In this document: piece after piece, positions 30,172-64,000 of the stretch
Layout of the letters: every line of letters starts with the position of its first letter
How positions within the stretch are numbered: position 1 is the stretch's first letter
DNA from: Patescibacteria group bacterium
GTDB lineage: Bacteria; Patescibacteriota; Patescibacteriia; UBA9934
Direction: 5' to 3'
Assembly: GCA_041660165.1 (NCBI GenBank)
Contig: JBAZWW010000003.1
Span: 68,352-132,351 of the forward strand
Length of the DNA stretch: 64,000 nucleotides
Translations under genes and position numbers: made by a program
The notes under the pieces: model-generated
The model's input: only the letters and a program-made list of their open reading frames with translations
What the model was told of the DNA's origin: nothing
The model's database searches: none

Positions 30172-30225
30172 TTGTCTCCTATCGAACTCCGCATCTTTCT
30201 TCTGGAAAGGTGCGGAGACGATATG

Positions 30226-30639: not shown

Positions 30640-30644
30640 ACTCT

Positions 30645-30986: not shown

Positions 30987-31036
30987 GCAGTTAGGTTTTT
31001 AATGGTGTATACTCTCAGTAAGAATTAATTATAACT

Positions 31037-32177: not shown

Positions 32178-32350
32178 GATGCCTCCAAGGGGTGCGGATT
32201 TCAGCGAGACATGACGGAGAGCTTATGGGCCTTCCGTCCTGTCTGCAGTAGATCCGGCCTCCCCTCAATGAAGAAGGGAGACACGGGAGCCTCGCGTGTG
32301 GGCTCATCGATGACGTACCGTAGGGACGAGGCTCGGCCTCGTCCTTGTCG

Positions 32351-33109
32351 TTACGGTTTTTCGGCCGGTGTGGGCGTGGCCAGGGTGGCCCCGATCTTGG
32401 CGGCGGCCGTCTGCACGTCCGCCACTGAGGACCCGAGGTCGGCCTGACCGAGCGCCTCTGCGTCGATCTTGGCCTGTTCCTCGGGCGTCACGGGTACGCC
32501 GTCGGGCTTGTCCGCTAGCGTGCCGGTGTCTGGGATGGTGCCGGTCTTGGGCGTACGGCCGTAGAGGTCTCCGCGGAAGTCTGCGATGACCCCGCTTCCG
32601 CCGTACCTGTAACCACCGGCGCCGAAGCTGGAACCACGGCCGTTGCTCGTGACCGCCGTCGCCAGCGCCACGTCCGTACCAACGGCGAACGTGTCGCCGC
32701 TGATGAACACGGGCCGGCCGGACGAGATCGCGCTCGTCACCGCCGAACTGCGCGTCTGCGCGTCCGTGAACGCGGGCAGGATCTGCACGCTGGCGATCGT
32801 GACGTTCGCGCTGGTCCGCGCGAGCTCCACGCGCTCGTCGCTCTGGATGCGGGCGAGGGCGATGGTCCGATCGGCGCACTGCGTGGCGAACTTGGTGCCG
32901 GCACGCGTGGTCGTGTGAGACGGCTCCAGCGTGACGCCGGCGCAGTCGCCGTAGAACGTCGCCCGGCCCACGTTCGGCCCGTTTTGCGGGTCGGCCGTGG
33001 TGGCGGTGCTGACCGGGCCCCAGTTCGGTGCCGGGGTGGCCGTGGCGTCCTGGGCCATGGCGGACCCGGAAGCCAGAGTGAAAAGAATCGAAACCAGATA
33101 CTTGCGCAT
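32351..33109 (-). CDS. secreted hypothetical protein (within the GC-rich island)
   Basis: Signal peptide MRKYLVSILFTLASGSAMA; Thr/Ala-rich; high GC3. Confidence 0.5.
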   Translation of the reverse strand: MRKYLVSILFTLASGSAMAQDATATPAPNWGPVSTATTADPQNGPNVGRATFYGDCAGVTLEPSHTTTRAGTKFATQCADRTIALARIQSDERVELARTSANVTIASVQILPAFTDAQTRSSAVTSAISSGRPVFISGDTFAVGTDVALATAVTSNGRGSSFGAGGYRYGGSGVIADFRGDLYGRTPKTGTIPDTGTLADKPDGVPVTPEEQAKIDAEALGQADLGSSVADVQTAAAKIGATLATPTPAEKP

Positions 33110-33243
33110 GTTTACCTCGCGCTTGGGTGGTCGGTCCTAGGCTCAGCAATCGGACAGTCCGACGGCTTTGCCCAGACCCTTTAGAATAGCAAAAAAATGG
33201 GTTTTTGTCAATGTTTCAAAGAGGGTGTTTCTTGGCTAATCTA

Positions 33244-33272
33244 TTGACATTTTTGAAAATTTGGGGTATTCT
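33244..33272 (+). promoter_or_regulatory. sigma70-like promoter (TTGACA-17-TATTCT) in the AT-rich divergent region
   Basis: TTGACA at 33244-33249 and TATTCT at 33267-33272; the only AT-rich stretch in the island. Confidence 0.45.
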
Positions 33273-33338
33273 CTTTTGTCTTCCTCCCCGTGCTTGCACA
33301 AGGAGGAATGACCGTCTTGGTTAGGAATACCGTTCAAC

Positions 33339-36822: not shown

Positions 36823-38031
36823 ATGCCGAAGTTCAAAGACTTTCTCATTCTTCTCTTGGCCGTTTTGCCAACTTATCTTTTGCGTTTTCATCTTGGGCCG
36901 GTGCCAACTACTGTGCTCGAAATATATATATTGTTGATTATTGGGTACTGGTTTATTTTTGAGCAGGGTTATCGGTTAGATTTCTTGCGAACAATGGGCG
37001 CGTACCGGGTGCCATTCCTACTTCTCCTCGCTACTTCATGTTTTGCCGTGGCCGTGGCGCCGGATCCGATCTCGGCACTCGGCACCTGGAAGGCATTTTA
37101 TGTCGAGCCGATTTTGTTGTTTTTCGTTTTTCGTTCAACGTTCCTCGCGCGCGAGGATTGGACGCTCGCCCTTGGCGCTCTTGGCATCTCGGTGATTTCT
37201 ATTTCGATCTTTGCCGTTTTCCAACGAGTGACGGGCCTCGGCATTCCGGTGCCATGGGATATCGAGCTTCGAGCAACCTCGATCTTTGATTTCCCGAACG
37301 CCGTTGGCTTATTTGTCGGTCCGGCGGTTGCCGTGTTTGTCGTGCTCGCTGTAGACAAGGCTCGAGCACTCCGGGAACGAGTATTTTTCGGCATCTCAGC
37401 CATGTTCGGTGTCATCGCGATTGTTCTCTCGCAAACCGAGGCGCTATTCATTGCCTTGCCGGTAGCGTTTCTGTTCTCGCTTTTGCTGTCGAGCGCCCCG
37501 AAGAAGCTCAAGCTCGGCATCATTGGCGCGAGCATTTTCCTTGGCGTCATCGCCTTTGCGGGCAGTTCGACCGTTCGTGAGAAGCTGCTGCTTGAAGACC
37601 TTTCCGGTCAGGTTCGCCGTTCACAGTGGACGGAAACACTCGCCCTTCTAAAAGATCATCCCATTTTTGGCGCTGGCCTCCAGGGCTATCCCGCTGTTTT
37701 TGCTAAGTACCATGACCCGCGTCTGTACGAAATCTTCCAGTACCCGCATAACATTTTGCTGAATTTTTGGGTTGAGCTTGGCTTCCTTGGCGTGATCACG
37801 CTCGTTGTTTTCATTCTTTCAGTTCTTCAGGTGACATATATGCGCCGGACAGACATTTTTAGCCTCGTAGCCTTTGCCGGACTCGCCACCATGTGTATCC
37901 ACGGTCTGGTTGATGTGCCATTTTTCAAGAATGATCTGGCGGTACTGACGGTGTTCTTGTTGGCCCTGAGCTCGACCTCCTCTGGCTCCTCCTTGGAAAG
38001 GAGGAGGATCACTTATGACCCTGATCTATAA
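36823..38031 (+). CDS. O-antigen ligase/polymerase-like (Wzy_C) membrane protein
   Basis: Multi-TM with a central periplasmic loop; motifs SQTEALFIALP and FGAGLQGY; the C-terminal tail SSLERRR is encoded by the hairpin at 37987-38007. Confidence 0.65.
   Translation: MPKFKDFLILLLAVLPTYLLRFHLGPVPTTVLEIYILLIIGYWFIFEQGYRLDFLRTMGAYRVPFLLLLATSCFAVAVAPDPISALGTWKAFYVEPILLFFVFRSTFLAREDWTLALGALGISVISISIFAVFQRVTGLGIPVPWDIELRATSIFDFPNAVGLFVGPAVAVFVVLAVDKARALRERVFFGISAMFGVIAIVLSQTEALFIALPVAFLFSLLLSSAPKKLKLGIIGASIFLGVIAFAGSSTVREKLLLEDLSGQVRRSQWTETLALLKDHPIFGAGLQGYPAVFAKYHDPRLYEIFQYPHNILLNFWVELGFLGVITLVVFILSVLQVTYMRRTDIFSLVAFAGLATMCIHGLVDVPFFKNDLAVLTVFLLALSSTSSGSSLERRRITYDPDL
37987..38007. repeat. palindromic hairpin CTCCTCC-TTGGAAA-GGAGGAG (family A variant, left flank of DUF559 gene 1)
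   Basis: Perfect 7-bp stem; loop identical to the 63561-63577 copy upstream of the second DUF559 gene. Confidence 0.6.
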
Positions 38032-38410
38032 CCCATCATGGAGCATTGAACGGAGAAAGGAGCTTCGGATGAGAGCAACATTCGCTGAAATTGTGCTTTG
38101 GAATCTTTTGAGAAATAGGCAACTCATGAATGTGAAGTTTCGTCGGCAGTATGGTGTAGACGGGTACATTGTCGATTTTTATGCTGCCCAATTGAAATTT
38201 GCAATTGAGCTTGATGGGGCCGTTCACGATACTGAAGAGGCAAGAAGATACGACCAAATTAGAGACGAGCACTTGAGGGGAATCGGCATCGAAATACTAC
38301 GATTACGAAACGAGGAGGTTGTACTGGGGCAGGAGTCAGCTCTCAAGCGAATCACTGAAGCGATGCGCTCTCGTCAGGCGCGTTACCCCTCCTTACCAAG
38401 GAGGGGATAG
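38015..38410 (+). CDS. DUF559 (Vsr/restriction-endonuclease-like) domain protein
   Basis: Aligns from Met1 with the second DUF559 protein at 63608 (M-T-x-I-x-N-x-x-W-S-(I/L)-E-R-R-(K/R)-(E/D)-L-R, FRRQYG, (I/L)-(I/V/T)-D-F-Y, ELDG); the C-terminal tail RYPSLPRRG is encoded by the hairpin at 38386-38406. Confidence 0.7.
   Translation: MTLIYNPSWSIERRKELRMRATFAEIVLWNLLRNRQLMNVKFRRQYGVDGYIVDFYAAQLKFAIELDGAVHDTEEARRYDQIRDEHLRGIGIEILRLRNEEVVLGQESALKRITEAMRSRQARYPSLPRRG
38386..38406. repeat. palindromic hairpin CCCCTCC-TTACCAA-GGAGGGG (family A variant, right flank of DUF559 gene 1)
   Basis: Perfect 7-bp stem; loop in inverted orientation relative to the left-flank copy. Confidence 0.6.
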
Positions 38411-38433
38411 GGGAGGTATAATCACCTCACACT

Positions 38434-40320
38434 ATGCTCCCTCTTCTCAAACGCGCCTTTTCAGGTTTTCTTTTGCTGGTCACGCTCCTTCTTGGCGTCC
38501 CTTTTACGGCTTTTGCCTCGAGTATTCCTTATTCAGCTCTACGCATAACCACCACCGGCGGGGGGAATATCACTTTGGCGCCGGGGGAGGTGAAGAATAT
38601 TGCCGTTTCTTTTCAAAACAAGGGTTCGCAGACGTGGAAAAATGATGGCAACGGCTACATTTCGCTTTATACCTACGGCCCAAAGTACCGGGCGAGTGTT
38701 TTTGACCCAGGTACCTGGCTCACGCCCTCGCAGGTGAAGCGGATGGGGGAGGAAGGCGTGAAGCCCGGCGCCACGGGCACATTTTTGTTCAGCTTGAAAG
38801 CGCCAAAGACCCTTGGCACATACAAAGAAACTTTCGCCCTGGCGTCTGAGAATATCAATTGGGTTACGGGAGGTGACTTCACTTTGAATATCACCGTGCA
38901 AGCGTCGAGTACTGCCAATGCGCCAGCTGTAGACCCCCGCCCGGACGATCCGGTCGGACGGGCTTCCTCACGTCAGGGTCTGGTTCCCGTTTCCACCGTC
39001 GCTCCCGATGCCTCTATTGGCTACTCAGCCAGTCTGGTCACCCAAACCGCTTCCAAAATGAAGGTCCTGGCTAAGAAAACAATCTCATTTTCGGCCGTTA
39101 TTCAGAACACGGGAACAAAGACATGGAAGAACATTGGGCTCTCGTCTTCAGCCATGAACATTGCTTCTGGGTCGAGTGATTTTAGGAACAGCACATGGTC
39201 TGGCAATCAGGTTGCCCTCCTCTCGCAAACAGTGAAGCCTGGCGCTACGGCCACGGTTCAGTTTTTCTTCACCTCGCCCAGCGTCAACGGAACACATACC
39301 GCGAAGTTTCAGATTACTGCAGACGGCATCAGTATTCCTGACAGCTTCGTGACCATTCCCGTTGAAGTAACCGGCGGATCGGCTGAAGCACTCGACGCCC
39401 CATTAGAAAGCGGGGTTTCCAACCCCTCCTCCGTGCCGGCCGCACTGATAACTGAACCAACTATCCGCGTGGGCGTGTTGATTGTGGACGAGGAGACAAA
39501 AGACGAGGCGGTCATCACCTCATTTGAAAGCGATTTTGATTTAATTGATACAGATGGCACGATCCTTGGTTCTTATCCAAGAGGGAAAGAGATCCGGACG
39601 GCATGGGATGGAGCGAATTATCTCTATAACGACGGTGCACACAAAAAGTCCTCGAAACCGCTCCGTTTCGTTCCAAAGACGCCAAACGCAGTCATGACCA
39701 TTACAAATTTTGATCGTCGGCTCACTCGCGGAACCTCGTTCGCAAACAACACTTTTAGAAACGTACTCGAACTCCGCTACAACACGCCGAATAATCGCAC
39801 TTGGGTTATAAATGAACTCCCGCTCGAATATTATTTACGAGGATTGGCTGAAACGTCTGATTCCTCGCCCGTTGAATTTCAGAAAGCGTTGTTAACCGCG
39901 GCCAGGACATACGCTTTTTATCACTGGACGCACAGCACTAAGCACAGAGCCGAAGGATTCCACGTAGACGCTTACCAAGACCAGGTGTACTGGGGCTATG
40001 ACCAGGAGGCCAGGACTCCGCGTATTACCGGAGGCGTGCAGGCCACGCGCGGTCAGATTGTCACGTACAACGGTGATACCGCCGTCACCTCATTCTTTTC
40101 TCGCTCGGATGGCAGAACTCGCAACTGGTCAGAAGTTTGGGGCGGAAACGTTCCGTATGCCAAATCCGTCCCCGTGCCGTGTGACGTTGGCAAGACTTTG
40201 TGGGGCCACGGCGTAGGCATGTCCGCTTCCGGCGCTCTCTGCATGGCCAAAGACGGTCAGGATTGGCAATCCATTCTCAAATATTTCTACACCGGCGTTG
40301 ATATTTCACAACGCTGGTAA
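38434..40320 (+). CDS. SpoIID/LytB-domain cell-wall protein with N-terminal Ig-like repeats
   Basis: Signal peptide; two TWKN-containing Ig-like repeats; C-terminal SpoIID/LytB-like region (NELPLEYYLRG...YWGYDQE...LWGHGVGMS). Confidence 0.7.
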   Translation: MLPLLKRAFSGFLLLVTLLLGVPFTAFASSIPYSALRITTTGGGNITLAPGEVKNIAVSFQNKGSQTWKNDGNGYISLYTYGPKYRASVFDPGTWLTPSQVKRMGEEGVKPGATGTFLFSLKAPKTLGTYKETFALASENINWVTGGDFTLNITVQASSTANAPAVDPRPDDPVGRASSRQGLVPVSTVAPDASIGYSASLVTQTASKMKVLAKKTISFSAVIQNTGTKTWKNIGLSSSAMNIASGSSDFRNSTWSGNQVALLSQTVKPGATATVQFFFTSPSVNGTHTAKFQITADGISIPDSFVTIPVEVTGGSAEALDAPLESGVSNPSSVPAALITEPTIRVGVLIVDEETKDEAVITSFESDFDLIDTDGTILGSYPRGKEIRTAWDGANYLYNDGAHKKSSKPLRFVPKTPNAVMTITNFDRRLTRGTSFANNTFRNVLELRYNTPNNRTWVINELPLEYYLRGLAETSDSSPVEFQKALLTAARTYAFYHWTHSTKHRAEGFHVDAYQDQVYWGYDQEARTPRITGGVQATRGQIVTYNGDTAVTSFFSRSDGRTRNWSEVWGGNVPYAKSVPVPCDVGKTLWGHGVGMSASGALCMAKDGQDWQSILKYFYTGVDISQRW

Positions 40321-45207: not shown

Positions 45208-45669
45208 ATGAAAGGCTATCGCCCCAACGCAGGCATCATTGTGACGGACGGCAAAGGCCATGTGCTCATGTGCGAGCGCACGGATTTGAAATATGAGGGG
45301 ACATGGCAGACACCCCAGGGCGGGATTGATCCCGGGGAGACGGGGAGAGATACGGCGGTGCGCGAGCTTGGCGAGGAACTCGGCCTGGCGCCGGAAGAAT
45401 TCGATATTCTGGCGGAATCAACGCAGAAGTTTCGTTACGAGTGGCCGGAAAGCTATCAGATGATGAATCCATTACGAGAGTTTCGGGGCCAAGAACAGCA
45501 GTTTTTCCTAGCGCAAGTCCATCCGGGCGTGGAGTTTTATCTTGATTCTGCTGGTCATGGGGAATTCAGACGGGTAATGTGGGGGAGCCCGCAGGACTTG
45601 CTCAGCAAATGCTGGGAACCCAAGCGTCCGGGGCTTGAGTCTGCTATGAAAGAGTTTGGCCTTTTATGA
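45208..45669 (+). CDS. NUDIX hydrolase (RppH-like)
   Basis: Start at MKGYRPNAGIIV; Nudix box GGIDPGETGRDTAVRELGEELGL. Confidence 0.7.
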   Translation: MKGYRPNAGIIVTDGKGHVLMCERTDLKYEGTWQTPQGGIDPGETGRDTAVRELGEELGLAPEEFDILAESTQKFRYEWPESYQMMNPLREFRGQEQQFFLAQVHPGVEFYLDSAGHGEFRRVMWGSPQDLLSKCWEPKRPGLESAMKEFGLL

Positions 45670-46553
45670 AAAAAACTACGCCAAAGAAGATTGTCATCAT
45701 TGGGGGAGGAACTGGCACGGCCACCGTCCTCAAAGGACTGCGCCAGTATCCGCTTGAGCTTTCAGCCGTGGTTTCAATGGCTGATGACGGCGGTTCGACG
45801 GGAATCCTTCGGCGCGAGCTTGGCATTTTACCGGTTGGGGATATTCGCCAATGCCTGCTCGCGCTTTCAGACGCCGAGGATTCCGTGAAGGAACTATTCG
45901 GTTATCGCTTCGCCGAGGGGAGTCTCTCAGGACACAGCGCGGGCAATCTTCTCCTCGCCGCGCTCGTGAAATCTACGGGGGATTTCGAGGAAGCATTGGC
46001 CGTTGCCTCGAGAATGCTCGACATAAAGGGCGAAGTCATTCCCGTAACGCTCGATTTGACCACGCTCGGCGTTATTCATGGGAGTGATCGAGTGAAAGTG
46101 ATGGGCGAGCATGTGATTGATGACGGACTCGTGCTCAACCAACCGCGAGAATTCTTCCTTGAGCCCCGCGCGCAGATCAGCAGTCGAGCTCGAACCGCCA
46201 TCCTCGACGCCGATGTGATCGTGATCGGCCCCGGCTCGCTCGCCACCTCGCTCATACCAGCACTCATTGTAGAGGGAGTGCGCAAGGCGATTGGCGAGTC
46301 TAAGGCGAAGATCATCTATAACGTAAACCTCGCCCCAACGCCGGGGCAGACGGAGGGGTTCTCGGTAGCCGATTACGTGAAAGAGATCGAGTCATACTTG
46401 CCCCGCAAGATAGATTTTGTGACGAGCGGGGACGCGCTCAGGGATCCCTCGAAAGTAGAGAAAAAGGCTGGCGATCTCCTTGTCAGAAGCAGTGTTCGGC
46501 ATAATCCGGAGGCGCTTGGCCGGGTCATTATGGAATATATTGAGGCGCTATGA
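45666..46553 (+). CDS. YvcK/CofD-like (UPF0052, gluconeogenesis-factor family) protein
   Basis: KIVIIGGGTG...MADDGGSTG signature. Confidence 0.8.
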   Translation: MKKTTPKKIVIIGGGTGTATVLKGLRQYPLELSAVVSMADDGGSTGILRRELGILPVGDIRQCLLALSDAEDSVKELFGYRFAEGSLSGHSAGNLLLAALVKSTGDFEEALAVASRMLDIKGEVIPVTLDLTTLGVIHGSDRVKVMGEHVIDDGLVLNQPREFFLEPRAQISSRARTAILDADVIVIGPGSLATSLIPALIVEGVRKAIGESKAKIIYNVNLAPTPGQTEGFSVADYVKEIESYLPRKIDFVTSGDALRDPSKVEKKAGDLLVRSSVRHNPEALGRVIMEYIEAL

Positions 46554-47698
46554 AGATTTTTATTGATTTTGACCACACGCTAACCCGGGGCCGGGAGTTT
46601 GGGGATGCCATTTTGGGCGAACTGGGCGGGGAGTCAGCGGAAATTTTGCGCACCGCGCTTCGGGATTTTAGGCAAACGCATGATTTTACGTTGGAAGCCG
46701 TTTCTCAGCTCTTTGAACAGTTCGGCTTTCCGCCTGAGCGAACGATCAGTATGTATGAAGCGTATGCCAAGCGGATGGAGGAGTTTTTGGCGCCAGATGC
46801 CCATGAATTTCTGTCCGCTTTGAAGGCATTGGGCCACGAGCTGATACTCCTCACGCGTTCTCCTGACGTGGAAACATGGCAACGGCCAAAGGTGCTGGCG
46901 TCAGGGCTGAGTGAATATTTTACTGGCATTGAGATTACGAGCGGAGCAAAAGTGGACGTGATAGAGATGCTCGGCCACCAAGAGCCGTTTATATTTATTG
47001 ATGATCTCCCAAAGGAAACGGAAGAAATGCAAGCACGTTTTCCGGTGGCGCTTTGTATTACGCATGAAAAAGGCGCCCCGCTCATGGAGCATCTTTTCAC
47101 TATTGCCGGTTTTGCTAATCGTGACGAGCTAAAAACGCTTCCGTTGCCGATTAATACCGCGATCAACATCGGAAATCTTTCACTCGAGGACGGCGAACAG
47201 CTGGCCGTAACGTTTGGCCTCGACAAAAAAGCAGTCGACGCTTTCAAAAAGCGTTCGTGTGATGAAACGGATGAAGAGCTCATGCGTTTTACGAGTGATC
47301 ACGAGCGGATTTGCCTTGGTTCGTATGAAACTTGGTATGCCAAGGAGCGCTACCCGTTTGGCCTCATGAGCAAGTCCGGCGAACTGGCCGGCATTGCCTG
47401 GTTTGGCCCAAAGGCGTTTCCCTCGATTGAAAAAGCGGGGTTTCAAACCCCGCCCATGACCGCGAACGCCGAGTGGCATACCTTTGCTGTCCGCATGTAT
47501 AACCCGTATCGCGGAAAACGGCTGGCTTTCCCCTTTGCTTCCTTTGTTTTTAAGGCTTACAATACCTTTCTTCCTCCGCATCCGCTTTGGCTTGATACAA
47601 GTCCGGAAAACGCTGGCGCCATTCGGTTATACTCAAAGCTAGGATTCATCGAGCATGGACATCGAGAGGATGGCCGAGTAGTCATGATCCGCCCGTAA
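46550..47698 (+). CDS. HAD-like hydrolase fused to a GNAT acetyltransferase
   Basis: N-terminal DxD motif FIDFDHTL; C-terminal GNAT-like region; contains in-frame palindrome B at 47435-47453. Confidence 0.55.
   Translation: MKIFIDFDHTLTRGREFGDAILGELGGESAEILRTALRDFRQTHDFTLEAVSQLFEQFGFPPERTISMYEAYAKRMEEFLAPDAHEFLSALKALGHELILLTRSPDVETWQRPKVLASGLSEYFTGIEITSGAKVDVIEMLGHQEPFIFIDDLPKETEEMQARFPVALCITHEKGAPLMEHLFTIAGFANRDELKTLPLPINTAINIGNLSLEDGEQLAVTFGLDKKAVDAFKKRSCDETDEELMRFTSDHERICLGSYETWYAKERYPFGLMSKSGELAGIAWFGPKAFPSIEKAGFQTPPMTANAEWHTFAVRMYNPYRGKRLAFPFASFVFKAYNTFLPPHPLWLDTSPENAGAIRLYSKLGFIEHGHREDGRVVMIRP
47435..47453. repeat. palindromic hairpin GCGGGGTT-tca-AACCCCGC (family B, copy 1, in-frame in the HAD-GNAT gene)
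   Basis: Perfect 8-bp stem; encodes KAGFQTPP. Confidence 0.6.
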
Positions 47699-47700
47699 CT

Positions 47701-48981
47701 ATGCCTCGCGTTAAACTGACCGAATTTCGGGCGAAGAAGCTCATCCTCGGCAACACCTACGCCGGTGTTTCTTTTTGTGGTGTGGTGCGTTCTCCCTCTT
47801 TCCAAGAGGGCGTCAGTACGGGTGGGCGTTCCCCCTCTTTCCAAGAGGGTGTCAGGACGGATGGGCGCTCCCCCTCTTTCCAAGAGGGGGCTACGGGGGA
47901 GTCGGTGGTGCGTTGGGTGGTCAAAGTCGATCAAGGTATCAAAAAGCGCTTCAAGCAAGGCCTCGTCAAAGTGAATATCTCGGCGGACGAGATTTTGAGC
48001 GCTGTCGAGCCTTGGAAGGCAAAGGGCTTCTCGCAATTCATTGCCGAGCCGTTTGTCGAGCACTCGGCGAACGAGGAACAGTATCTTTCGCTTGAGCGCG
48101 TGCGTGAGGGGGTTCGCATTTTGCATACCGCCGAGGGCGGAGTTGATATTGAGGCGCATCCGGAAGCTGTCCGATCATATGTCGTCGAAAATGCGGGCGA
48201 GATTTCATTGATCGCTAAAGAGACGAAGATTCCGCAGGCATTCCTTGAACAGTTAATTTCAACTTTTAACGATAAGATGTTTGCATTTCTTGAGATCAAT
48301 CCGCTTGTGATCAAGGGTGATCGAGTCTATTTGCTCGACGCTGCCGTGCTCGTGGACAGCGCAGGAATCTTCTTTGTGCACGGCGCGTGGACGGCGAGTG
48401 ATCTTGTTCTGCCCACCGCCAAGCATCCGGCTGAAGCGCGGGTCGAGGAATTAGCGAAAACCACTCCCGCCTCGCTCAAATTGTCCGTGCTGAATCCTGA
48501 CGGAGCATTGTTTTTCTTGTTGTCTGGCGGTGGGGGATCAATCGTGATCGCAGATACCGTCATGAACAAAAGCGGGGTTTCAAACCCCGCCCACGGCGCG
48601 GGCCAACTGATCGGCAACTACGGCGAGTACAGCGGAGGGCCCACGCGCGAAGAGACGTTTTTGTACACTCGCGAGGTACTCGGTTTGTTGCTCGGATCGA
48701 GCGCGCCGAAGAAGGCGCTCATAATTGCCGGGGGAGTGGCAAACTTTACGGATGTGAAGCGGACGTTTGCAGGCATCATTGACGCGTTGACCGAGCGCTC
48801 AGCCGAACTCCGTAAGCAGGGCGTTAAGGTGTTTGTGCGCCGGGGCGGACCGAATGAACAGGCGGGACTGGCCATGATGCGTGAGTTCCTGACCGCCGAG
48901 GGATTGCTCGGTGCCGTTTATGGATCAGAGGCGGTGATGACTAAGGCGGTAGAAGACGCCATAGCTTTTGTAAAAGTATGA
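47701..48981 (+). CDS. ATP-grasp subunit resembling ATP-citrate lyase beta / succinyl-CoA synthetase beta (AclB-like)
   Basis: ATP-grasp plus CoA-ligase fold; near the N-terminus carries three tandem 13-aa in-frame repeats (SPSFQEGxxTxGR) from element A, and a family B hairpin at 48572-48590. Confidence 0.65.
   Translation: MPRVKLTEFRAKKLILGNTYAGVSFCGVVRSPSFQEGVSTGGRSPSFQEGVRTDGRSPSFQEGATGESVVRWVVKVDQGIKKRFKQGLVKVNISADEILSAVEPWKAKGFSQFIAEPFVEHSANEEQYLSLERVREGVRILHTAEGGVDIEAHPEAVRSYVVENAGEISLIAKETKIPQAFLEQLISTFNDKMFAFLEINPLVIKGDRVYLLDAAVLVDSAGIFFVHGAWTASDLVLPTAKHPAEARVEELAKTTPASLKLSVLNPDGALFFLLSGGGGSIVIADTVMNKSGVSNPAHGAGQLIGNYGEYSGGPTREETFLYTREVLGLLLGSSAPKKALIIAGGVANFTDVKRTFAGIIDALTERSAELRKQGVKVFVRRGGPNEQAGLAMMREFLTAEGLLGAVYGSEAVMTKAVEDAIAFVKV
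47784..47903. repeat. three tandem 39-bp copies of palindromic element A (GGTGCGTT-CCCCCTCTTTCCAAGAGGGGG-CTACGGGGGAGTC)
   Basis: Direct reading of the sequence; in-frame within the AclB-like CDS. Confidence 0.85.
48572..48590. repeat. palindromic hairpin GCGGGGTT-tca-AACCCCGC (family B, copy 2, in-frame in the AclB-like gene)
   Basis: Identical 19-mer, read in a different frame (KSGVSNPAHG). Confidence 0.6.
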
Positions 48982-50798
48982 ACGTCATTGAAACCATAAG
49001 AACGGGGCAGGATGGTATTCTCGTCCTTGGCAACCATCCAGAAATCGTGCAATCCATTTTGGATTTTGATTATTTGTCGGGCAAGGCTCATCCCTCGATT
49101 TTGGGGATTGTGACTCAGAACCGAAAGGCCTTAAAATGTTTTTTTGGCGCGCGGGAGATGCTGGTTCCGTGTTTTAAGAGCGTTAATGCGGTGCCGAAAG
49201 TGATCGGCGAGAATGTGCGCTGGATGCTGAACGCGCAGTCTGGCCGGCGCGCGTATGACTCGACCGTTTCGTTTTTCGAGGCCTTTCCGAAGGCACTCGG
49301 CGGGCACATTTTTGCGGAGAATATGCCGGAGATCCACGCGACCGAGCTGATTCGCCGTTATGGATTCTCGAAACTCATCGCTGGGCCATCCGGCGTTGGT
49401 CTCCTCGTCCCTGGCCATCTCAAACTTGGCGCCAGCGGGGGAGTGGGCGTGCCCCAGCTTGTGCAGGGGAAACTAGCGAATCCTGGCTCGGTCGCCGTTG
49501 TCTCGACATCTGGCGGAATGACGAACGAGTTGATTGTGGCCGTGGCGAATGCGGGCAAGGGGACCTCGTTTTCCGTTTCTATCGGCGGGGATAGGTTTCC
49601 GATCACTTCGCTAACTGATGTGTTGATGCTGGCGGAGGGAGACGCGCAGACAGAAGCGATCGTCTATTTCGGCGAGCTTGGCGGAGCGGACGAGTATGAG
49701 ATTGTGAAATTACTCGACGAGAAAAAGCTGACGAAGCCAATCATTTGTTATATTGCCGGGATCATTGACGAAGCTTTTGATCAGCACATGCAGTTTGGCC
49801 ACGCCAAGGCACTGGTAGCGCATAAAGATGAGAGCGCTCGAGCGAAAAGAGTTGCGCTCGCAAAAGCCGGAGCCATTGCCCCGGAGACGTTCCCTGAGTT
49901 TCTCTCGGTCATCCCAAGCATCAATATCATCTCGAGCGGAGCGAGAGATTTGATTGGCCAATCAGATCCTTCGCCTGTCAAACAAGCTCAGGATGACGCT
50001 TACATTAAACCCCTTATGGAAAGACAAAAAAGTATTCTCTCGACACGAAAAATTGTTGACCTAGAATCCGTTCCGCAGTACGTCAAAGACGGCAAGCTGG
50101 CTAAACCGCGGGCGAATGCGTTCGCCTCGGCTTCTCTGCGAGCACTGCTCGGTCGTGAACCTTCAGCCCTAGTTTCGGCCTTTGTTGAGAACATTTTCGA
50201 GTTATTGATCGATCACGGCGGGAACGTTTCCGGCGCGGTGAACACCATGATTACCGCCAGGGCCGGCAAAGATCTCGTCTCCTCGCTCGCCTCAGGCTTG
50301 TTAACGATCGGTCCGCGTTTTGGTGGGGCGGTCAATGATTCAGCCAAGACCTGGATGCAGGGCGTAGTGTCAAAAAAGTCCGCCTCTGACTTTGTTGAGG
50401 AGAAAACCAAAGCTGGCGATCTGCTCGCGGGCATTGGACATAGAAAATATCGTGTAGGCATTCCTGATCCACGCGTAGCTTCCTTGTCCGAGTTTGCTTC
50501 GCTCCTTTCAAGTCATCCGCATTACGATTTCGCGCGAGCAGTCGAGGCAGTGACCACGAGCAAGAATGGCAACCTCATCTTGAACGTGGACGGCGTCATG
50601 GCTTCGCTCCTCCTAGACATTCTTGCCGAGTCCGATAAATTCTCGCCCGAAGAACTTCAAGAACTGGTTGACGCTGAATTCTTTAACGCCCTCTTTGTCA
50701 TCCCCCGCACCGTTGGCTTCATTTCACACTTTATCGAACAGAAGAGGAACGACGAGGGACTATTCCGCTTGCCGGACGAGCTGTTGTTTGAGAGATAG
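48978..50798 (+). CDS. ATP-citrate lyase alpha-like subunit (SCS-alpha CoA-binding domain plus citrate-synthase-like C-terminal domain)
   Basis: 606 aa; phosphohistidine loop MQFGHAKAL; citrate-synthase-like GIGHRKYRVGIPDPRV; 4-bp overlap with the upstream ATP-grasp subunit. Confidence 0.7.
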   Translation: MNVIETIRTGQDGILVLGNHPEIVQSILDFDYLSGKAHPSILGIVTQNRKALKCFFGAREMLVPCFKSVNAVPKVIGENVRWMLNAQSGRRAYDSTVSFFEAFPKALGGHIFAENMPEIHATELIRRYGFSKLIAGPSGVGLLVPGHLKLGASGGVGVPQLVQGKLANPGSVAVVSTSGGMTNELIVAVANAGKGTSFSVSIGGDRFPITSLTDVLMLAEGDAQTEAIVYFGELGGADEYEIVKLLDEKKLTKPIICYIAGIIDEAFDQHMQFGHAKALVAHKDESARAKRVALAKAGAIAPETFPEFLSVIPSINIISSGARDLIGQSDPSPVKQAQDDAYIKPLMERQKSILSTRKIVDLESVPQYVKDGKLAKPRANAFASASLRALLGREPSALVSAFVENIFELLIDHGGNVSGAVNTMITARAGKDLVSSLASGLLTIGPRFGGAVNDSAKTWMQGVVSKKSASDFVEEKTKAGDLLAGIGHRKYRVGIPDPRVASLSEFASLLSSHPHYDFARAVEAVTTSKNGNLILNVDGVMASLLLDILAESDKFSPEELQELVDAEFFNALFVIPRTVGFISHFIEQKRNDEGLFRLPDELLFER

Positions 50799-50874: not shown

Positions 50875-51942
50875 TTAGCGCGAGATCTCGAGAATCCCCG
50901 TTGGCACCCCGAGCGTCTCAAGCATTTGCTTCGCCTTCTCCTCGCTGGCCGGCATCATTTGGCGTTTTTGGAGGTAGAGCGGTTCGAATTTGAGCGTCAG
51001 TTTGTCAGCCTCGACGGTTAAGCGGACAGCCAGCCCGCTTTTTGTAGCTTCCGAGAAATCTTGATCGAACAAGAAATTGCCGAGCGAATAGACGATCGGG
51101 ACATTTTTGTATGTTTCGACGGTTTCAATGACATGCGGATGTCCGCCAATGACGGCGTCTGCGCCAGCGTCAACAAATTGATGCCCCGCAAAGATCTGTG
51201 AGCTGGACGGATTGTGCTGATACTCCACGCCCCAGTGAGGCATAACGATCACGAAATTGCCGGCGGATTTTTCAAGTTTGATGGCCTCGACAATGCCAGC
51301 GGTTGTTTCGTTAAAAGCGTGGTAGCCAATAAAGGCAAAAGTTATTCCGTTCACGGTTTTGTGGGCTACAAACTTTCCGCCTTCCCACGCATCGCCAAAC
51401 GGAGTCATGCCGGCGTTCGTGATTGTTGTCCTGGTGAGCTCCGCGGTTGCCCGGCCATAATCATCAGCATGATTGTTCGACAATGAAAGCAAGTCGAATC
51501 CTTGGGTGGCGAGCATTGAAACATTGCCGGGCGTGGTGTCAAAGTTCATGACGTTTGTTCCTTCGATGTTTTCTTTTTCGCGTACTGTTCCCTCAAAATT
51601 ACCGATAAGCAGGTCACTATTTGAAAGCAAATCTCCAACCTTCGCAAACGGATATTCGGTGCCGTAAAGTTTTATGTATTGCTCCACGTTTCTTGCGAGC
51701 ATAATGTCGCCCACGAATTCAAGAGTCGTGCTCGAGTCGTTCGGTGAGGGCACGATATCCGCCGTAGGGGTCGATCCATGTATCGACCCCGCAGTGACGA
51801 TGCGATCTCCCGCCATGGTCAGATGCGCCCTTCGAGAGATTTCGATGGACGAATTTGCTTTAGAAAACGGCGATACCACAAGAAATCCGATGAGAACGGT
51901 GAGTCCAAGCGCGGTTAACAGTATGGCGAGTTTTGGGGTCAT
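50875..51942 (-). CDS. CapA/PGA_cap-family metallophosphatase-like protein
   Basis: N-terminal TM; motifs FVGDIM, NFEG, NNHADDYG, GGHPHV; carries in-frame element C at 51767-51790. Confidence 0.7.
   Translation of the reverse strand: MTPKLAILLTALGLTVLIGFLVVSPFSKANSSIEISRRAHLTMAGDRIVTAGSIHGSTPTADIVPSPNDSSTTLEFVGDIMLARNVEQYIKLYGTEYPFAKVGDLLSNSDLLIGNFEGTVREKENIEGTNVMNFDTTPGNVSMLATQGFDLLSLSNNHADDYGRATAELTRTTITNAGMTPFGDAWEGGKFVAHKTVNGITFAFIGYHAFNETTAGIVEAIKLEKSAGNFVIVMPHWGVEYQHNPSSSQIFAGHQFVDAGADAVIGGHPHVIETVETYKNVPIVYSLGNFLFDQDFSEATKSGLAVRLTVEADKLTLKFEPLYLQKRQMMPASEEKAKQMLETLGVPTGILEISR
51767..51790. repeat. palindromic hairpin GGGGTCGAT-ccatgt-ATCGACCCC (family C, copy 1)
   Basis: Perfect 9-bp stem; encodes GSIHGSTPTA on the minus strand. 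Confidence 0.7.
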
Positions 51943-53357: not shown

Positions 53358-53410
53358 ATTGTTGATGTAGGGGCCGATTTATATATCGGCCCAGATTATG
53401 ATTATTTCAT

Positions 53411-55261
53411 TTACGTAACGAACGGTAACGTGATCCCCTTAGCCTTGGCCAACCAATAGCCAAGCGCCCCCAAACTGGTAGTGAGTAACCCGCCTCCCAC
53501 CCACGGAATTTGTTTCGTGGGCGGGGGAGCGATGAGATTGTGATTCCTCTCCCCGCTAGGGGAGGAAGTAGGTAGGGGGGTTGTCATATCTGCCGTAGGG
53601 GTCGATCCATGTATCGACCCCGTAAGCACGCTCATCCCCTTCGTCTCCGTTATGGCGAGCGTCCACGCTCCGCTCTTCACTCGCGCCACGCCCGTCACTG
53701 CAATACGGTCGCCGAAGGCCAGGTCAGCAAAGTTGATGGCCACATGCGGAGCAGATGCTATGGCAAGGGTGTCGCCATTTTCGAGTTCCACCGTTACTCC
53801 GCCTTTGGCCATGTCCGTGACCGAGCCTTCCAGACTGAAGTATCCGCCTTGGACAGCTTCGTCGAGTGAGTTAAGCGAGTCTGGCGCCAGCGCGTCCTGG
53901 CCGGTTGTTTTAATGTCCAACCGTTTGCTTATCTTGAGACGCACATAGCCGTCTTTTTGTTGAACCACGCCGGTAACCTGCACGTGTGCCATGTATTTCA
54001 GCTTTGGCCAGTCGGCTTTGTTGAAATACACTTCAAGTCCATTTAGATACATCAGCTGTTTGCCGAATACTCCCGGCAGGCCAACCACTACGCCATCAAC
54101 GGTCACAATTTCTCCATCCGGGACATCGCCGAGTTCTGAGACGTCGAGTACCGTCAGGGTGGTTCCTCTCCCCGTGAGGGGAGAGGCTAGGTGAGGGGTA
54201 GCGGTGGCCGGGGGCAGGGGGGAGGCTACGCTGTCCGCCACCGTTGTTGCGAGCTCCAGCCGAACAGGGCTTGGGGCGGGGGCATCAGGGTTAGTTCCTT
54301 GAGCTTGGTCTTGAACGGCCGGATCAGGGTTGATAACGGCAGGAGTGTTGATTGTCGTCTCATATGTTGTATTCGTTGTGTCGTAGGGGTCGATCCATGT
54401 ATCGACCCTCGTATTAATGGCGAGCGGAGTGGGATCAGATTCAATCCACGTTCCGTCGGGTTGTTTAGCGAGTGATTTTCCTTTTTTCGGCGCCGTTTTG
54501 CCGGTGTACGATATCGCGTCAATCGTTGCTCCGGTTCCATCGAACAGGAAGATTGAGTCGCCATCGTTATTGAGTTTGCCCTTCGGGTTTTGTAGGACAA
54601 AGAAGGCGTGCGCCGGCAGAATCTGATCGGGCAACGGAGTTTTACTTGTCGTCGCATCTTTAACCGTCCACCCGCCGAGAGAGATTTCGTCTTCGGTTGT
54701 GTTGAGAAGCTCAATCCATTCCACACCATCGGCCGGATCAGATACGAATTCATTGATGAGGACGGAGCCAGTGGGATACGGGATTGGCCCGGGTGCCACG
54801 GGCGGTACCACGGGCGCGGTTGATGGCGCGGGCGTTAGGGTGGTCAATGGGGGTGCCGTAGGGGTCGATCCATGTATCGACCCCGCCTCGGTAGGCGTGA
54901 TGATCGGCGCGGGCGCCTCAATCGGCAATGGCTCGATGACCGTGATTGGCGCAACGGGTTCTGGTTCAGGTTCCGGTGCAACTGGTTCCGGTGCCGGCAA
55001 TGGGGCCGTCTGCACCGGACACAGCAGGCACGGATCCCCGGCGTCATCCCCTCCTTGTGAGGGAGGCTCGCCCGTAGGTTGCGAAGTTACGCCCGAGGAG
55101 GGCAGAGGGATGGAGGGGGCCAAGGGGGTGGCTACGTCTCCACCGGTCCCAGCGCTTTCGACGGTTTCGACGATCGCGGTTTCGGATGCGTCTTCTGCTC
55201 TCGCGGGTAGAGGAGACACAAAGGGCAAGAGGGTGAGGATTCCCAAGAGTCCATAGTACAT
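53411..55261 (-). CDS. secreted lamin-tail-domain (LTD) protein, Pro/Thr-rich, with a C-terminal membrane anchor
   Basis: LTD pattern VLINEFVSDPADGVEWIELLNTTEDEISLGGWTVKD...LNNDGDSIFLFD; signal peptide; C-terminal TM; contains three family C and two family D hairpin elements in-frame. Confidence 0.65.
   Translation of the reverse strand: MYYGLLGILTLLPFVSPLPARAEDASETAIVETVESAGTGGDVATPLAPSIPLPSSGVTSQPTGEPPSQGGDDAGDPCLLCPVQTAPLPAPEPVAPEPEPEPVAPITVIEPLPIEAPAPIITPTEAGSIHGSTPTAPPLTTLTPAPSTAPVVPPVAPGPIPYPTGSVLINEFVSDPADGVEWIELLNTTEDEISLGGWTVKDATTSKTPLPDQILPAHAFFVLQNPKGKLNNDGDSIFLFDGTGATIDAISYTGKTAPKKGKSLAKQPDGTWIESDPTPLAINTRVDTWIDPYDTTNTTYETTINTPAVINPDPAVQDQAQGTNPDAPAPSPVRLELATTVADSVASPLPPATATPHLASPLTGRGTTLTVLDVSELGDVPDGEIVTVDGVVVGLPGVFGKQLMYLNGLEVYFNKADWPKLKYMAHVQVTGVVQQKDGYVRLKISKRLDIKTTGQDALAPDSLNSLDEAVQGGYFSLEGSVTDMAKGGVTVELENGDTLAIASAPHVAINFADLAFGDRIAVTGVARVKSGAWTLAITETKGMSVLTGSIHGSTPTADMTTPLPTSSPSGERNHNLIAPPPTKQIPWVGGGLLTTSLGALGYWLAKAKGITLPFVT
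53544..53566. repeat. palindromic hairpin TTCCTCTCCCC-gct-AGGGGAGGAA (family D, copy 1)
   Basis: Near-perfect stem; encodes PSGERN in the LTD protein. Confidence 0.55.
53598..53621. repeat. family C hairpin, copy 2
   Basis: GGGGTCGATCCATGTATCGACCCC, identical to copy 1. Confidence 0.7.
54165..54186. repeat. palindromic hairpin CCTCTCCCC-gtg-AGGGGAGAGG (family D, copy 2)
   Basis: Perfect 9-bp stem; encodes ASPLTGRG in the LTD protein. Confidence 0.6.
54386..54408. repeat. family C hairpin, copy 3
   Basis: GGGGTCGATCCATGTATCGACCC. Confidence 0.7.
54861..54884. repeat. family C hairpin, copy 4
   Basis: GGGGTCGATCCATGTATCGACCCC. Confidence 0.7.
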
Positions 55262-60781: not shown

Positions 60782-61729
60782 ATGACCAAGAAACGCCTTG
60801 CCATTTTAACTGGCGGGACAAGCGCTGAGCGTGACATTGCTCTGGCGTCCGCAAAAACAGTCGCTGATCTGCTTGCCGAACGGTATGACATAACCAAGTT
60901 CGATTTTCCAAGTGAGATTGACGCATTCCTAGCGCAACGAGATACCTTCGATGTCGCAATCCCCATCTTCCACGGTAAGGGCGGGGAAGACGGAACCGTG
61001 CAGGGCTTCTTGAAAACGCTCGGCGTGCCATTTCTATTCTCGGACGTCACCGCACATGCCATTGGCATGGACAAGACCTTGGCGAAAACCGTTGTGTCTA
61101 CCGTCGGTCTTCATACGCCGAGCTCGATCGTTCTGACTCGTGTTGAGTTCCTTCAGGGTGGCTCCCCCTCTTTCCAAGAGGGGGCCAGGGGGAGTCTCGG
61201 GATGGTCAGGGTGGTCAAGCCTCTGGATTCCGGCAGTACCCTCGGCATCACCATCGTCCGCTCTTCCAACGACCTACAGTCAGCCCTCGAAAACGCTTTT
61301 AAGCATTCCGATAAAGTGCTCATTGAGGATTTCATTGGAGGCGACGAATTCACCGTGGCTGTGATCGACGAACATGGCGAATCAATCGCCTTGCCCGTGA
61401 TTCAAATCGTCTCGCCGAACGGGATATACGATCACTCCGCCAAGTACGGCCCACAGCCAGCCGAGAAACTTTGCCCGGCGCCGATTAGCGAAGATCTCAC
61501 TTTACGCCTTCAAGAATCCGCCGTCACCGCGCACAAAGCCATCGGCGCCAGGCATTTGTCGCGGACAGATTTCATCGTTGACCGAGAGGGGACAATTTGG
61601 TTCCTTGAAATCAACACCATTCCCGGCCAATCCGTCTTATTTCCAAAAGCCGTAAAAGCATCAGGCCGTGATTTTGCAGAGATATTTGCCGACTGGATTG
61701 AGTCTGTCTACCTTGCCAAATCCTCCTGA
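60782..61729 (+). CDS. ddl: D-alanine--D-alanine ligase
   Basis: Ddl N-terminus RLAILTGGTSAERDIALASAK, ATP-grasp motifs, EINTIPG; carries a 39-bp in-frame insertion of element A (encoding GGSPSFQEGARGS). Confidence 0.9.
   Translation: MTKKRLAILTGGTSAERDIALASAKTVADLLAERYDITKFDFPSEIDAFLAQRDTFDVAIPIFHGKGGEDGTVQGFLKTLGVPFLFSDVTAHAIGMDKTLAKTVVSTVGLHTPSSIVLTRVEFLQGGSPSFQEGARGSLGMVRVVKPLDSGSTLGITIVRSSNDLQSALENAFKHSDKVLIEDFIGGDEFTVAVIDEHGESIALPVIQIVSPNGIYDHSAKYGPQPAEKLCPAPISEDLTLRLQESAVTAHKAIGARHLSRTDFIVDREGTIWFLEINTIPGQSVLFPKAVKASGRDFAEIFADWIESVYLAKSS
61157..61196. repeat. palindromic element A inserted in-frame in ddl
   Basis: GGTGGCTCCCCCTCTTTCCAAGAGGGGGCCAGGGGGAGTC. Confidence 0.85.
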
Positions 61730-62965: not shown

Positions 62966-63535
62966 ATGAGAAAGATGACTGGTGCGCGTGAAGTGACGGA
63001 AACGCAGTTGATGGGCTGGGCTCATGAGGGAACGGTTGAGAGTGCCAGAAAGATTAAGGAATTCAGGGATACGAACGAGGACGACGAGCTCGAGGCCTAT
63101 GCCGAGCTGGCGTATGGCGAGGCGATCTATTTCGCTTATTCGCCCGACAATGATGAGGAAGAACGTGATTTTCTGCTCGGTCGCATGATTCACGAGGCCG
63201 AAGGGAGAATGTGTGATCTGTTTGTAAAGAAGTTTCCCTTGCAAAGAAAACAGCTTGAGGGAGATATCGAACGCGCGATTCATACAAAACTCATGAAACA
63301 GGTGTCGAAGGAAGAGAAAGATGAGTGGCAATATAACTTCAGCGAAGATTACTACACGTGGGAACGCGGGAGACTCCAGATTGTCGAAGACGAAATTGCG
63401 TATCTGGAGGTTTGGCTCAAGCAAGCCAAGCAGATGTTTGCGCTTGAGAAATATCGAGATGCACCTCAAGAAGTCTACGAGAATATCCATTCTGATGATG
63501 TCATTGATCCGTTTGAGGGGGAAGAAGAGAACTGA
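62966..63535 (+). CDS. acidic hypothetical protein
   Basis: 189 aa, rich in Glu/Asp/Tyr; preferred over the antisense 225-aa ORF. Confidence 0.45.
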   Translation: MRKMTGAREVTETQLMGWAHEGTVESARKIKEFRDTNEDDELEAYAELAYGEAIYFAYSPDNDEEERDFLLGRMIHEAEGRMCDLFVKKFPLQRKQLEGDIERAIHTKLMKQVSKEEKDEWQYNFSEDYYTWERGRLQIVEDEIAYLEVWLKQAKQMFALEKYRDAPQEVYENIHSDDVIDPFEGEEEN

Positions 63536-63545: not shown

Positions 63546-63604
63546 GACTCCCCCGTAGCCCCCTCTTGGAAAGAGGGGGAGCGCACACCCTGACAGCACG
63601 CACC
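63546..63604. repeat. palindromic element A (inverted orientation, left flank of DUF559 gene 2)
   Basis: GACTCCCCCGTAGCCCCCTCTTGGAAAGAGGGGGAGCGCACACC..GCACGCACC is the reverse complement of element A. Confidence 0.8.
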
Positions 63605-63607: not shown

Positions 63608-64000
63608 ATGACGGAAATATTCAACCAAAAATGGAGCCTGGAGAGGCGCAGAGATTTACGAAATGGAATGACCAAACCGGAGATCTTGCTGTGGTTAGCT
63701 ATCAAGGCAGATCAACTTGGCGTTCGTTTTAGAAGGCAGTACGGAATTGGTCGGTACATAACCGATTTTTATGTCCCGCGATTACGACTCGTGGTTGAAT
63801 TGGACGGCTCGCAGCATTACACCCCGGAAGGTAGGCGATATGATGAGATTCGAACCAAATCTTTCGAAAGCATCGGCATCCAGGTCATCCGTTTCGCAAA
63901 CGACGAAGTTTGCAGAAATCTGCACGGCGTTCTTCAGCGTCTCCGCATTGCGATAGCGGACCGTCAGAATGGTCAGGTGCGTTCCCCCTCTTTCCAAGAG
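63608..64000 (+). CDS. DUF559 (Vsr/restriction-endonuclease-like) domain protein, 3'-truncated by the window end
   Basis: ATG at 63608; MTEIFNQKWSLERRRDLR...FRRQYGIGRYITDFY...VVELDG, homologous to the protein at 38015; the ORF continues into element A (…QNGQVRSPSFQE). Confidence 0.6.
   Translation, partial: MTEIFNQKWSLERRRDLRNGMTKPEILLWLAIKADQLGVRFRRQYGIGRYITDFYVPRLRLVVELDGSQHYTPEGRRYDEIRTKSFESIGIQVIRFANDEVCRNLHGVLQRLRIAIADRQNGQVRSPSFQE
63976..64000. repeat. palindromic element A (forward orientation, right flank of DUF559 gene 2; truncated by the window end)
   Basis: GGTGCGTTCCCCCTCTTTCCAAGAG. Confidence 0.8.

Follow-up and report, generated by a model that had tools for sequence, protein, structure and literature searches.

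An in-frame tandem array of a putative triplex repeat in an AclB-like gene of a Patescibacteria genome, and a candidate link between such repeats and DUF559 nuclease genes

Results

We analyzed a 64,000-nt stretch of DNA from a Patescibacteria group bacterium (assembly GCA_041660165.1, contig JBAZWW010000003.1, positions 68,352 to 132,351), referred to below as the window. On its forward strand, the open reading frame (ORF) 47701..48981 encodes a 426-aa AclB-like beta-type subunit of ATP-citrate lyase, with Pfam matches to Citrate_synth_N (9e-30) and Citrate_bind (3e-49) and a match to human ACLY in the PDB at 3e-60. The ORF of an AclA-like subunit (48978..50798) follows directly. Within the AclB-like ORF, a 117-bp segment (47788-47904) is made up of three diverged 39-bp units in tandem and in frame. 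We call the repeat that forms these units, and that recurs elsewhere in the window, element A.

Tandem Repeats Finder reported a single array at 47782-47888 (period 39, 2.7 copies, 91% matches, score 170), which outranked every other tandem array of the window. The pairwise identities among the three units were 35/39, 29/39, and 26/39. Unit 1 (47788..47826, plus strand) encodes RSPSFQEGVSTGG and comprises the left arm and a 7-bp hairpin, CCCTCTT-tcc-AAGAGGG (47794-47810); unit 2 (47827..47865, plus strand) encodes RSPSFQEGVRTDG and also carries a 7-bp hairpin (47833-47849). Only unit 3 (47866..47904, plus strand), which encodes RSPSFQEGATGES, is a complete element. Its first segment, S1 (CCCCCTCTT, 47870-47878), is followed by the loop TCC, the second segment S2 (AAGAGGGGG, 47882-47890), the linker CTAC, and an extra third segment, S3 (GGGGGAGT, 47895-47902), which mirrors S2 and has no counterpart in units 1 and 2. 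A junction or right arm, GTGGTGCGTTGGGTGGTCAA (47905..47924, plus strand), then encodes VVRWVVK and leads into the conserved lysine strand of the ATP-grasp domain. An earlier reading of this DNA, made from the letters alone (the sequence-only reading), had placed three tandem 39-bp copies of 13 codons each at 47784-47903, in a gene that it called AclB-like. The array and the codon-register units bear out this description, the Pfam matches agree with the gene assignment, the three peptides had been read correctly, and the ORF passes through the repeats without meeting a stop codon. Two points had escaped that reading, namely that unit 3 alone is complete and that many other phyla share the core.

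As short repeats can be misassembled, the copy number or the whole array could be an artefact of this metagenome-assembled genome (MAG). The public gene collection has no record of the exact AclB protein of the window, and hence no second, independent assembly backs it up. However, any two of the units have mismatches at 4 to 13 of the 39 positions, unlike a duplicated or collapsed read path, and this mutual divergence argues against a simple duplication by the assembler. Moreover, the frame is kept, the flanks align cleanly with orthologues, and related tandem arrays occur at other loci in other assemblies. We judge an assembly artefact very improbable.

To place the array in its gene family, we compared the AclB-like ORF with its 2853 homologues, which, where a source was named, came from Patescibacteria (Paceibacteria/Kaiserbacteria). 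The typical homologue has 381 to 385 aa, versus 426 aa for the window protein. In an alignment of 120 Patescibacteria homologues, the loop that runs from "GVxF/L" to "WVxKVDQG" measured about 12 residues, against 46 in the window, a net gain of about 34 aa that confirms an insertion relative to orthologues. The 27 codons located 5' of the repeats hold the family-invariant residues M1, R3, K5, E8, A11, K12, G17, and G22; compared with the closest relative, 8 of these codons show synonymous and 4 show non-synonymous differences. The conservation of these codons places the true start codon upstream of the repeats, not downstream, and the repeats therefore lie within the coding sequence. As a side observation, an ATP-citrate-lyase-type enzyme seems to be a regular feature of Patescibacteria, given that AclB-type homologues number in the thousands and the named ones are all from there; the gene order CofD - HAD/GNAT - AclB - AclA (window 45666-50798) is kept in several of their contigs (L022, L023, and L105).

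An AlphaFold2 model of AclB built on 102 sequences reached a predicted local distance difference test (pLDDT) score of 87.3 and a predicted template-modeling (pTM) score of 0.80 overall. Residues 27-71 had no secondary structure and a pLDDT of 34 to 64 and were located between strands 23-26 and 72-76. Thus, the insert-coded segment is predicted to be a disordered excursion just ahead of the VVK strand, in agreement with the tolerance at a surface loop that the sequence-only reading had suggested. The second suggestion of that reading, a regulatory role of RNA structure, found no support: the RNA fold of the 146-nt array region was no stabler than those of shuffled sequences (z = 0.09), which led us to drop the idea of an mRNA structure, and relatives carry unrelated inserts at the same place. 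ViennaRNA folds, which cover the hairpin only and not a triplex, indicated that each single AclB unit forms a hairpin as single-stranded DNA. The AclB gene also contains a palindrome of another family, family C (GCGGGGTTTCAAACCCCGC, 48572..48590, plus strand), which is unrelated to element A and adds 8 aa (the KSGVSNPAHGAG region). Residues 291-293 have a low pLDDT, and the insert was found in 2 of the 102 sequences, those of the window and of the closest relative.

Hairpin-rich mobile inserts that ribosomes bypass exist in phage genes, and the AclB insert could by comparison be removed or skipped before maturation, either as an intron- or intein-like element or through programmed ribosomal bypass. 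In the AclB gene, however, there is nothing to bypass, as neither a stop codon nor a frameshift is present, and plain read-through yields an intact, well-modelled protein. The units are far too small for an intein. A search of Rfam at permissive thresholds, covering 47-64 kb of the window and five DUF559 loci (described below), returned no intron or other RNA family for the element and none for the leaders of the DUF559 genes. Removal or bypass of the insert is thus extremely improbable.

We then examined the architecture of element A. Its layout was fixed across six aligned window copies: the arm GTCAGG..GTG.GCGYT, S1, the loop TCC, S2, a linker of 3 to 4 nt, and S3. The 17-nt core CCCTCTTTCCAAGAGGG gave 10 strand-matches in the window versus 0.13 expected from shuffles, a count so far above expectation that element A must be a real dispersed repeat. 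An exact 21-nt core, which is stop-free in all frames (the whole AclB array is stop-free in five of six), was found in 21 stretches from the candidate phyla radiation (CPR), Gammaproteobacteria, Bacteroidota, Nitrospinota, and Clostridia, and in those stretches it was always followed by a GGGGGAGT-like segment. S3 mirrors S2, such that GGAGGGG corresponds to GGGG(A/T)GG and GGGGGAG to GAGGGGG. We also considered S3 as the complement of an extended S1, which would create an alternative hairpin, but the variants at 38386 and at other loci fit a mirror repeat and ruled this out.

The mirrored segment was evaluated in 156 hairpins from 79 independent loci, with linkers of 2 to 4 nt. A perfect (8/8) mirrored third segment was present in 100 of the 156 hairpins, and the linker was often TTA. 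The mean mirror score was 7.15, versus 6.10 when the segment was read as a direct repeat and 6.08 ± 0.06 for permuted pairings, about 17 standard deviations above the latter. Opposite an A of S2, the base of the third segment was A in 146 cases, T in 150, G in 14, and C in 14. A mirrored segment that obeys the rules G to G and A to A or T follows the code of an antiparallel purine-motif triplex. A pyrimidine stem and a complementary purine stem are present in all nine copies of the window, with stems of 7 bp in units 1 and 2 and of 9 bp in the others. The mirrored second purine segment is present in unit 3 (GAGGGGG / GGGGGAG), in the copy located in the Ddl gene, and in those at 54165, 38386, and 37974, and it is absent from units 1 and 2.

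Triplex-motif repeats of the BoxC/PIT/TM class have been known since the 1990s and have been treated as intergenic. To our knowledge, they still lack an assigned function, origin, or mobility factor. In the published TM pattern, a C-rich and a G-rich stem are separated by a loop of 3 to 6 nt, and a second loop of 3 nt leads to another G-rich stem that mirrors the first G-rich one (Holder et al. 2015, NAR, PMC4666352); this second loop, "TTA," is matched by the linkers found here. The triplex fold was demonstrated by circular dichroism and nuclear magnetic resonance for oligonucleotides of the Escherichia coli repeat TM_ECO, and the E. coli TM repeats are described as always intergenic, with no mobility function nearby (PMC4666352). 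The same article refers to earlier work by Hoyne and Maher and on BoxC and, as quoted there, the literature holds that purine-motif triplexes do not form in RNA. Judged by its sequence pattern, element A falls into the BoxC/PIT/TM class, as a G/C-rich intrastrand triplex motif of class II.

Five of the nine copies of triplex elements in the 64 kb are located inside coding sequence. A single complete copy of element A with both arms (61153..61218, core 61164, plus strand) lies in frame in the ORF of a D-Ala-D-Ala ligase (Ddl; 60782..61729), where it reads QGGSPSFQEGARGSLGMVRVVK. The in-frame reading QGGSPSFQEGARGSLG comes directly before the V(V/I)KP strand, and the nearest Ddl orthologues are 10 to 13 residues shorter at this position. 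The insertion sites in AclB and Ddl are thus equivalent in the ATP-grasp fold, just before the lysine-bearing strand. A variant element (54154..54198, plus strand; z = -3.9), composed of the arm TCAGGGTGGT followed by CCTCTCCCC-gtga-GGGGAGAGG-cta-GGTGAGGGG, falls inside the minus-strand ORF 53411..55261, which encodes a Lamin-tail domain protein. Other genomes likewise carry the identical core in frame: one Uhrbacteria MAG has it in TsaD, in LeuRS, and in an ABC-F ATPase, and it also occurs in MnmA and a family-2 glycosyltransferase (GT2). The hosts with copies in TsaD, LeuRS, ABC-F, and MnmA are CPR bacteria. The peptide SPSFQEG is encoded by element A in AclB, Ddl, and the tail of a DUF559 protein in the window, as well as in LeuRS (L009) and MnmA (L003). 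TsaD and ABC-F read the element in another frame, as APSWKEGE, and other hosts also use the opposite strand.

The sequence GGGTGGTCAA is located directly 3' of both the AclB and the Ddl copies. It occurs four times in the window (47915-47924, 61209-61218, 54838-47, and 6996-7005 on the minus strand), versus 0.15 expected; three of the four sites adjoin copies of palindromic elements, and at the AclB and Ddl sites the encoded residues are those of the conserved (W/R)VVK strand. Its position beside these two copies may reflect a target preference, a homology anchor, or chance. We also considered the 8- to 11-nt direct repeats that flank the AclB and Ddl copies as target-site duplications. This candidate was not retained, since a "TCAGGGTGGTC"-type arm flanks the element at unrelated sites of the Uhrbacteria genome (L007, L009, and L017), which points to the arms being part of the element.

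Two further palindrome families were seen in the window. Family B (GTAGGGGTCGATCCATGTATCGACCCC, GTAGGGGTCGAT...) is GTAG-tagged and REP-like and has five copies (51755-51791, 53358-53394, 53586-53622, 54374-54410, and 54849-54885). The four copies with a strict core are inside ORFs for PGA_cap and the Lamin-tail protein, where they read AGSIHGSTPTA or RVDTWIDPYDT; the PGA_cap copy (51755..51791, plus strand) is in frame in the minus-strand gene 50875..51942, and the divergent fifth copy (53358-53394) lies just outside ORF 53411..55261. The three copies of family C (39410-39428, 47435-47453, and 48572-48590) are all in ORFs, which encode a SpoIID-domain protein, a HAD/GNAT fusion, and AclB, respectively.

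We next compared the AclB loop among relatives. The closest one, P0001, has 84% amino acid identity, and its contig (L022) is syntenic, with about 82% nucleotide identity. In L022, family B sits exactly in the AclB loop. The loops of L023 and L105 contain other variants of the triplex motif, and those of L106 and L107 contain other, longer palindromes. Given these five relatives with differing inserts and the array of the window, the AclB loop has been hit independently at least six times. The window and L022 share family C in AclB, whereas the PGA_cap copy of family B and the HAD/GNAT copy of family C are confined to the window. This pattern of presence and absence shows that elements have been moving within the time that separates two 82%-identical genomes. 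Together, these results establish the AclB loop as an insertion hotspot and reveal recent turnover of the elements.

The same comparison bears on whether the insert is adaptive. A flexible SPSFQEG loop could serve as an interaction or regulatory surface in AclB (and Ddl), or the hairpins, in the mRNA or the DNA, could tune expression, for instance through translational pausing before the ATP-grasp domain folds or as a rheostat set by copy number. Consistent with such a role, one frame and the one peptide SPSFQEG recur in the five proteins listed above, both ATP-grasp enzymes carry the element at a structurally equivalent place before the VVK strand, and every AclB unit forms a hairpin as single-stranded DNA. 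However, the closest relatives have wholly different loop sequences and most orthologues have none, and TsaD, ABC-F, and other hosts read the element in other frames or from the other strand. The array region folds as shuffled sequences do, the coded loop is predicted to be disordered, and purine-motif triplexes do not form in RNA, according to the literature as quoted in PMC4666352. In addition, steps of 39 bp keep the frame and so provide no on/off switch. We found no evidence that the array is an adaptation and regard an adaptive insert as unlikely.

The window contains two DUF559 genes, and inverted triplex motifs bracket both. Gene 1 (38015..38410, plus strand, 132 aa) lies between two variants other than element A: a reverse one (37974..38006, minus strand; GACCTCCTC-tgg-CTCCTCCTT-gga-AAGGAGGAG) located 8 nt upstream and a forward one (38386..38417, plus strand; CCCCTCCTT-acc-AAGGAGGGG-ata-GGGGAGGT) that overlaps the stop codon. 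Gene 2 (63608..64000, plus strand), which is cut by the window end, encodes a Vsr-like PD-(D/E)XK nuclease (Pfam DUF559, 2.5e-29; PDB 3HRL, 6e-15); 3HRL, the closest solved structure to DUF559, is itself uncharacterised. Gene 2 is bracketed by element A, with a reverse copy (63546..63594, core 63559, minus strand) in the gap between ORF 62966..63535 and the gene and a forward copy (63971..64000, core 63984, plus strand; 90%) at its 3' end. The latter extends over the arm, S1, the loop, and the start of S2 before it is cut by the window end. DUF559 genes also adjoin the element in loci from Gammaproteobacteria and Bacteroidaceae that had been chosen via the element.

To measure this association in loci chosen independently of the element, we collected 80 DUF559 loci from metagenomes by protein similarity alone and used the ends of the neighbouring genes in the same loci as controls. 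Strict pyrimidine/purine (Y/R) hairpins occurred at 3.9 per kb in the end zones of DUF559 genes and at 0.24 per kb elsewhere, with none in the gene body. The motif was present upstream of 51 of 76 DUF559 genes, typically starting about 40 nt before the start codon, and at or just past the stop codon in 47 of 73. In contrast, the control genes had hairpins at only 4 of 57 upstream and 4 of 62 downstream ends (odds ratios of about 26 to 27, p about 5e-13). Among the DUF559 genes with both motifs, the loops were reverse complements in 17 cases and identical in 5. Two loci, L057 and L065, share an 82%-identical module that is bounded by the upstream and downstream motifs, and their 1.5-kb flanks are unrelated even by tblastx, showing that the module occurs as a discrete unit in different contexts.

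E. coli K-12 provides a related arrangement (L108, NC_000913.3 1351040-1351830). At its stop codon, the DUF559 gene of this strain (ycjD) leads into a degenerate Y/R hairpin, which is followed by a duplicated fragment of the ycjD 3' end and then by a canonical TM_ECO about 170 nt downstream. Of 5426 complete E. coli genomes, about 62% have both the ycjD gene and the motif-bearing spacer. In the strains without ycjD that we examined (L109 and L110), TetR and RND-efflux genes stand beside fabI instead. As these genomes hold another gene block and not an empty site, the presence or absence of ycjD is not a clean test.

Several loci showed further arrangements. Next to DUF559 genes, triplex motifs form repeated inverted doublets 38 nt apart in L029 (1191-1260, 1422-1490, and 2121-2190), which resemble REPINs, and a threefold tandem array with a period of 36 in L043 (275-380). 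A subgroup of DUF559 genes from A+T-rich genomes (L026, L030, L034, and L074) has a conserved module of about 650 nt that extends from about -200 to +45 around the gene. This module combines a structured-looking 200-nt leader and a downstream hairpin, carries no triplex motif, has unrelated flanks, and had no match in Rfam; it may represent another type of mobile DUF559 unit.

The rest of the window contains other features of note. A giant ORF of 2696 aa (3243-11333) has no Pfam match and contains many internal repeats of 57 to 300 nt with 60 to 75% identity. Three small adjacent ORFs (30172-31411) with a common 69-nt block (GVLWMTASGNEK-like, 74 to 78% identity) look like a paralogous trio of small membrane proteins. 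The G+C content is 0.64 at 32001-34000, versus about 0.50 to 0.55 elsewhere, and between 34 and 38 kb the AT skew takes strongly negative values.

Discussion

We consider it probable that the AclB array is a tandem form of a dispersed, self-folding repeat that was expanded by slippage and is tolerated, as selfish or structural DNA, in a permissive loop of the enzyme. The element would have landed in a length-variable, solvent-exposed loop just upstream of the ATP-grasp lysine strand, and its arm-plus-hairpin module would then have been duplicated twice by replication slippage or template switching at the hairpin. Selection would have retained only the stop-free outcomes that preserve the frame, and the array would be translated as a loop of about 46 residues, essentially neutral for the protein. 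Copies would survive because this frame contains no stop, the units have 13 codons, and the loop tolerates disordered residues. By the same process, the element would also have entered further housekeeping genes in CPR bacteria, where genomes are compact and intergenic space is scarce. Slippage and tolerance are supported by the tandem arrays with periods of 35 to 39 at other loci of the family (L043 and L029), by published reports that motifs of this kind stop DNA polymerase in vitro and are markers of unstable loci, and by the lack of conservation of the insert among relatives.

Several observations weigh against this explanation. With the third segment missing from units 1 and 2, three plain insertions do not account for the array. 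The in-gene window copies of element A share strand and frame and encode SPSFQEG, as do LeuRS (L009) and MnmA (L003), which might point to the peptide being constrained, although independent events are scarce and the frame is a different one in other hosts. The presence of GGGTGGTCAA 3' of both the AclB and the Ddl copies suggests that insertion is not random. Finally, the three copies and their translation are read from assembled sequence.

The enrichment at DUF559 genes raises the question of which enzyme might act on these motifs. It is possible, if somewhat short of probable, that the BoxC/PIT/TM repeats have their missing partner in DUF559 proteins, a group of small Vsr-like nucleases that includes E. 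coli YcjD. By analogy with REPtrons, the motif-bracketed gene would be an autonomous unit whose nuclease recognizes or nicks the folded motif. Non-autonomous offspring of this unit would then be the copies found singly, as doublets, or in tandem, among them the three units in AclB and the copies in further CPR housekeeping genes. DUF559 proteins may mobilize the motifs, home into them, or use them as expression signals. If correct, this partnership would explain the genome instability reported around triplex motifs. Our literature search found nothing that connects DUF559, YcjD, or Vsr-like proteins to palindromes or triplex motifs, although such a link may have been published. As E. coli possesses both ycjD and TM_ECO, it is a suitable model to address this question, and the association across phyla makes DUF559 a concrete candidate for an enzyme acting on triplex structures.

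Relative to the published description of the class, which is itself known, the new elements are the intragenic, apparently translated tandem state, the recurrent use of one loop, and the association with DUF559. In the compact genomes of Patescibacteria, triplex elements appear to be written into essential enzymes as translated loops and would thus shape protein as well as intergenic DNA. For annotators, they provide an explanation for odd low-complexity inserts such as "SPSFQEG" or "PSWKEGE" in conserved proteins.

The behavior of element A recalls that of the Rickettsia palindromic elements (RPEs), reportedly described by Ogata et al. in 2000 as "selfish DNA in protein-coding genes." RPEs are about 100 to 150 bp long, are known only from Rickettsia, show no purine/pyrimidine mirror symmetry, and are not known to be accompanied by a nuclease gene. 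Both kinds of element are palindromic, lie in frame in conserved genes at sites tolerated by the fold, would be translated as additional surface segments with function left intact, and vary among close relatives, an analogy of behavior and not of membership. Element A is set apart from RPEs, by description, through its 39-bp units (about 65 bp with arms) and its Patescibacteria host. Like MITEs (miniature transposable elements with inverted repeats), it is small, non-autonomous, structured, dispersed, and sometimes found within genes, but at 39 to about 65 bp its units fall below the typical MITE size, and no transposase was identified.

With the BoxC/PIT/TM repeats, element A shares dispersal in multiple copies, frequent inverted pairs, and a link to local genome variability. 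In contrast to the TM repeats of E. coli, which are always intergenic and have no mobility gene nearby (PMC4666352), the motif is found here in frame in essential-type genes, once as a threefold tandem array, and it also brackets DUF559 nuclease genes. The variant CCCCCTCTT/AAGAGGGGG differs from the TM_ECO consensus, and units 1 and 2 of the array are devoid of the third strand. The closest parallel to the bracketed genes is the REPtron, in which REP and REPIN sequences are associated with RAYTs (Bertels & Rainey 2011, PMC3116915; Di Nocera et al. 2013, PMC3733652). Both systems combine short, GC-rich, multicopy palindromes, inverted doublets, and a small single-copy enzyme gene that has its own repeat on both sides in inverted orientation, as at both DUF559 genes of the window and at most of the sampled DUF559 loci. 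They differ in that the enzyme here is a DUF559 Vsr-like PD-(D/E)XK nuclease and not a Y1 (IS200/IS605-type) transposase, a comparison that concerns the bracketed genes, as the rest of the window was not screened for RAYTs. Element A also lacks the GTAG/CGTC tag of REP sequences, whereas family B carries a GTAG tag. By analogy with REPtrons, we put forward the hypothesis that DUF559 proteins provide triplex repeats with a nuclease partner.

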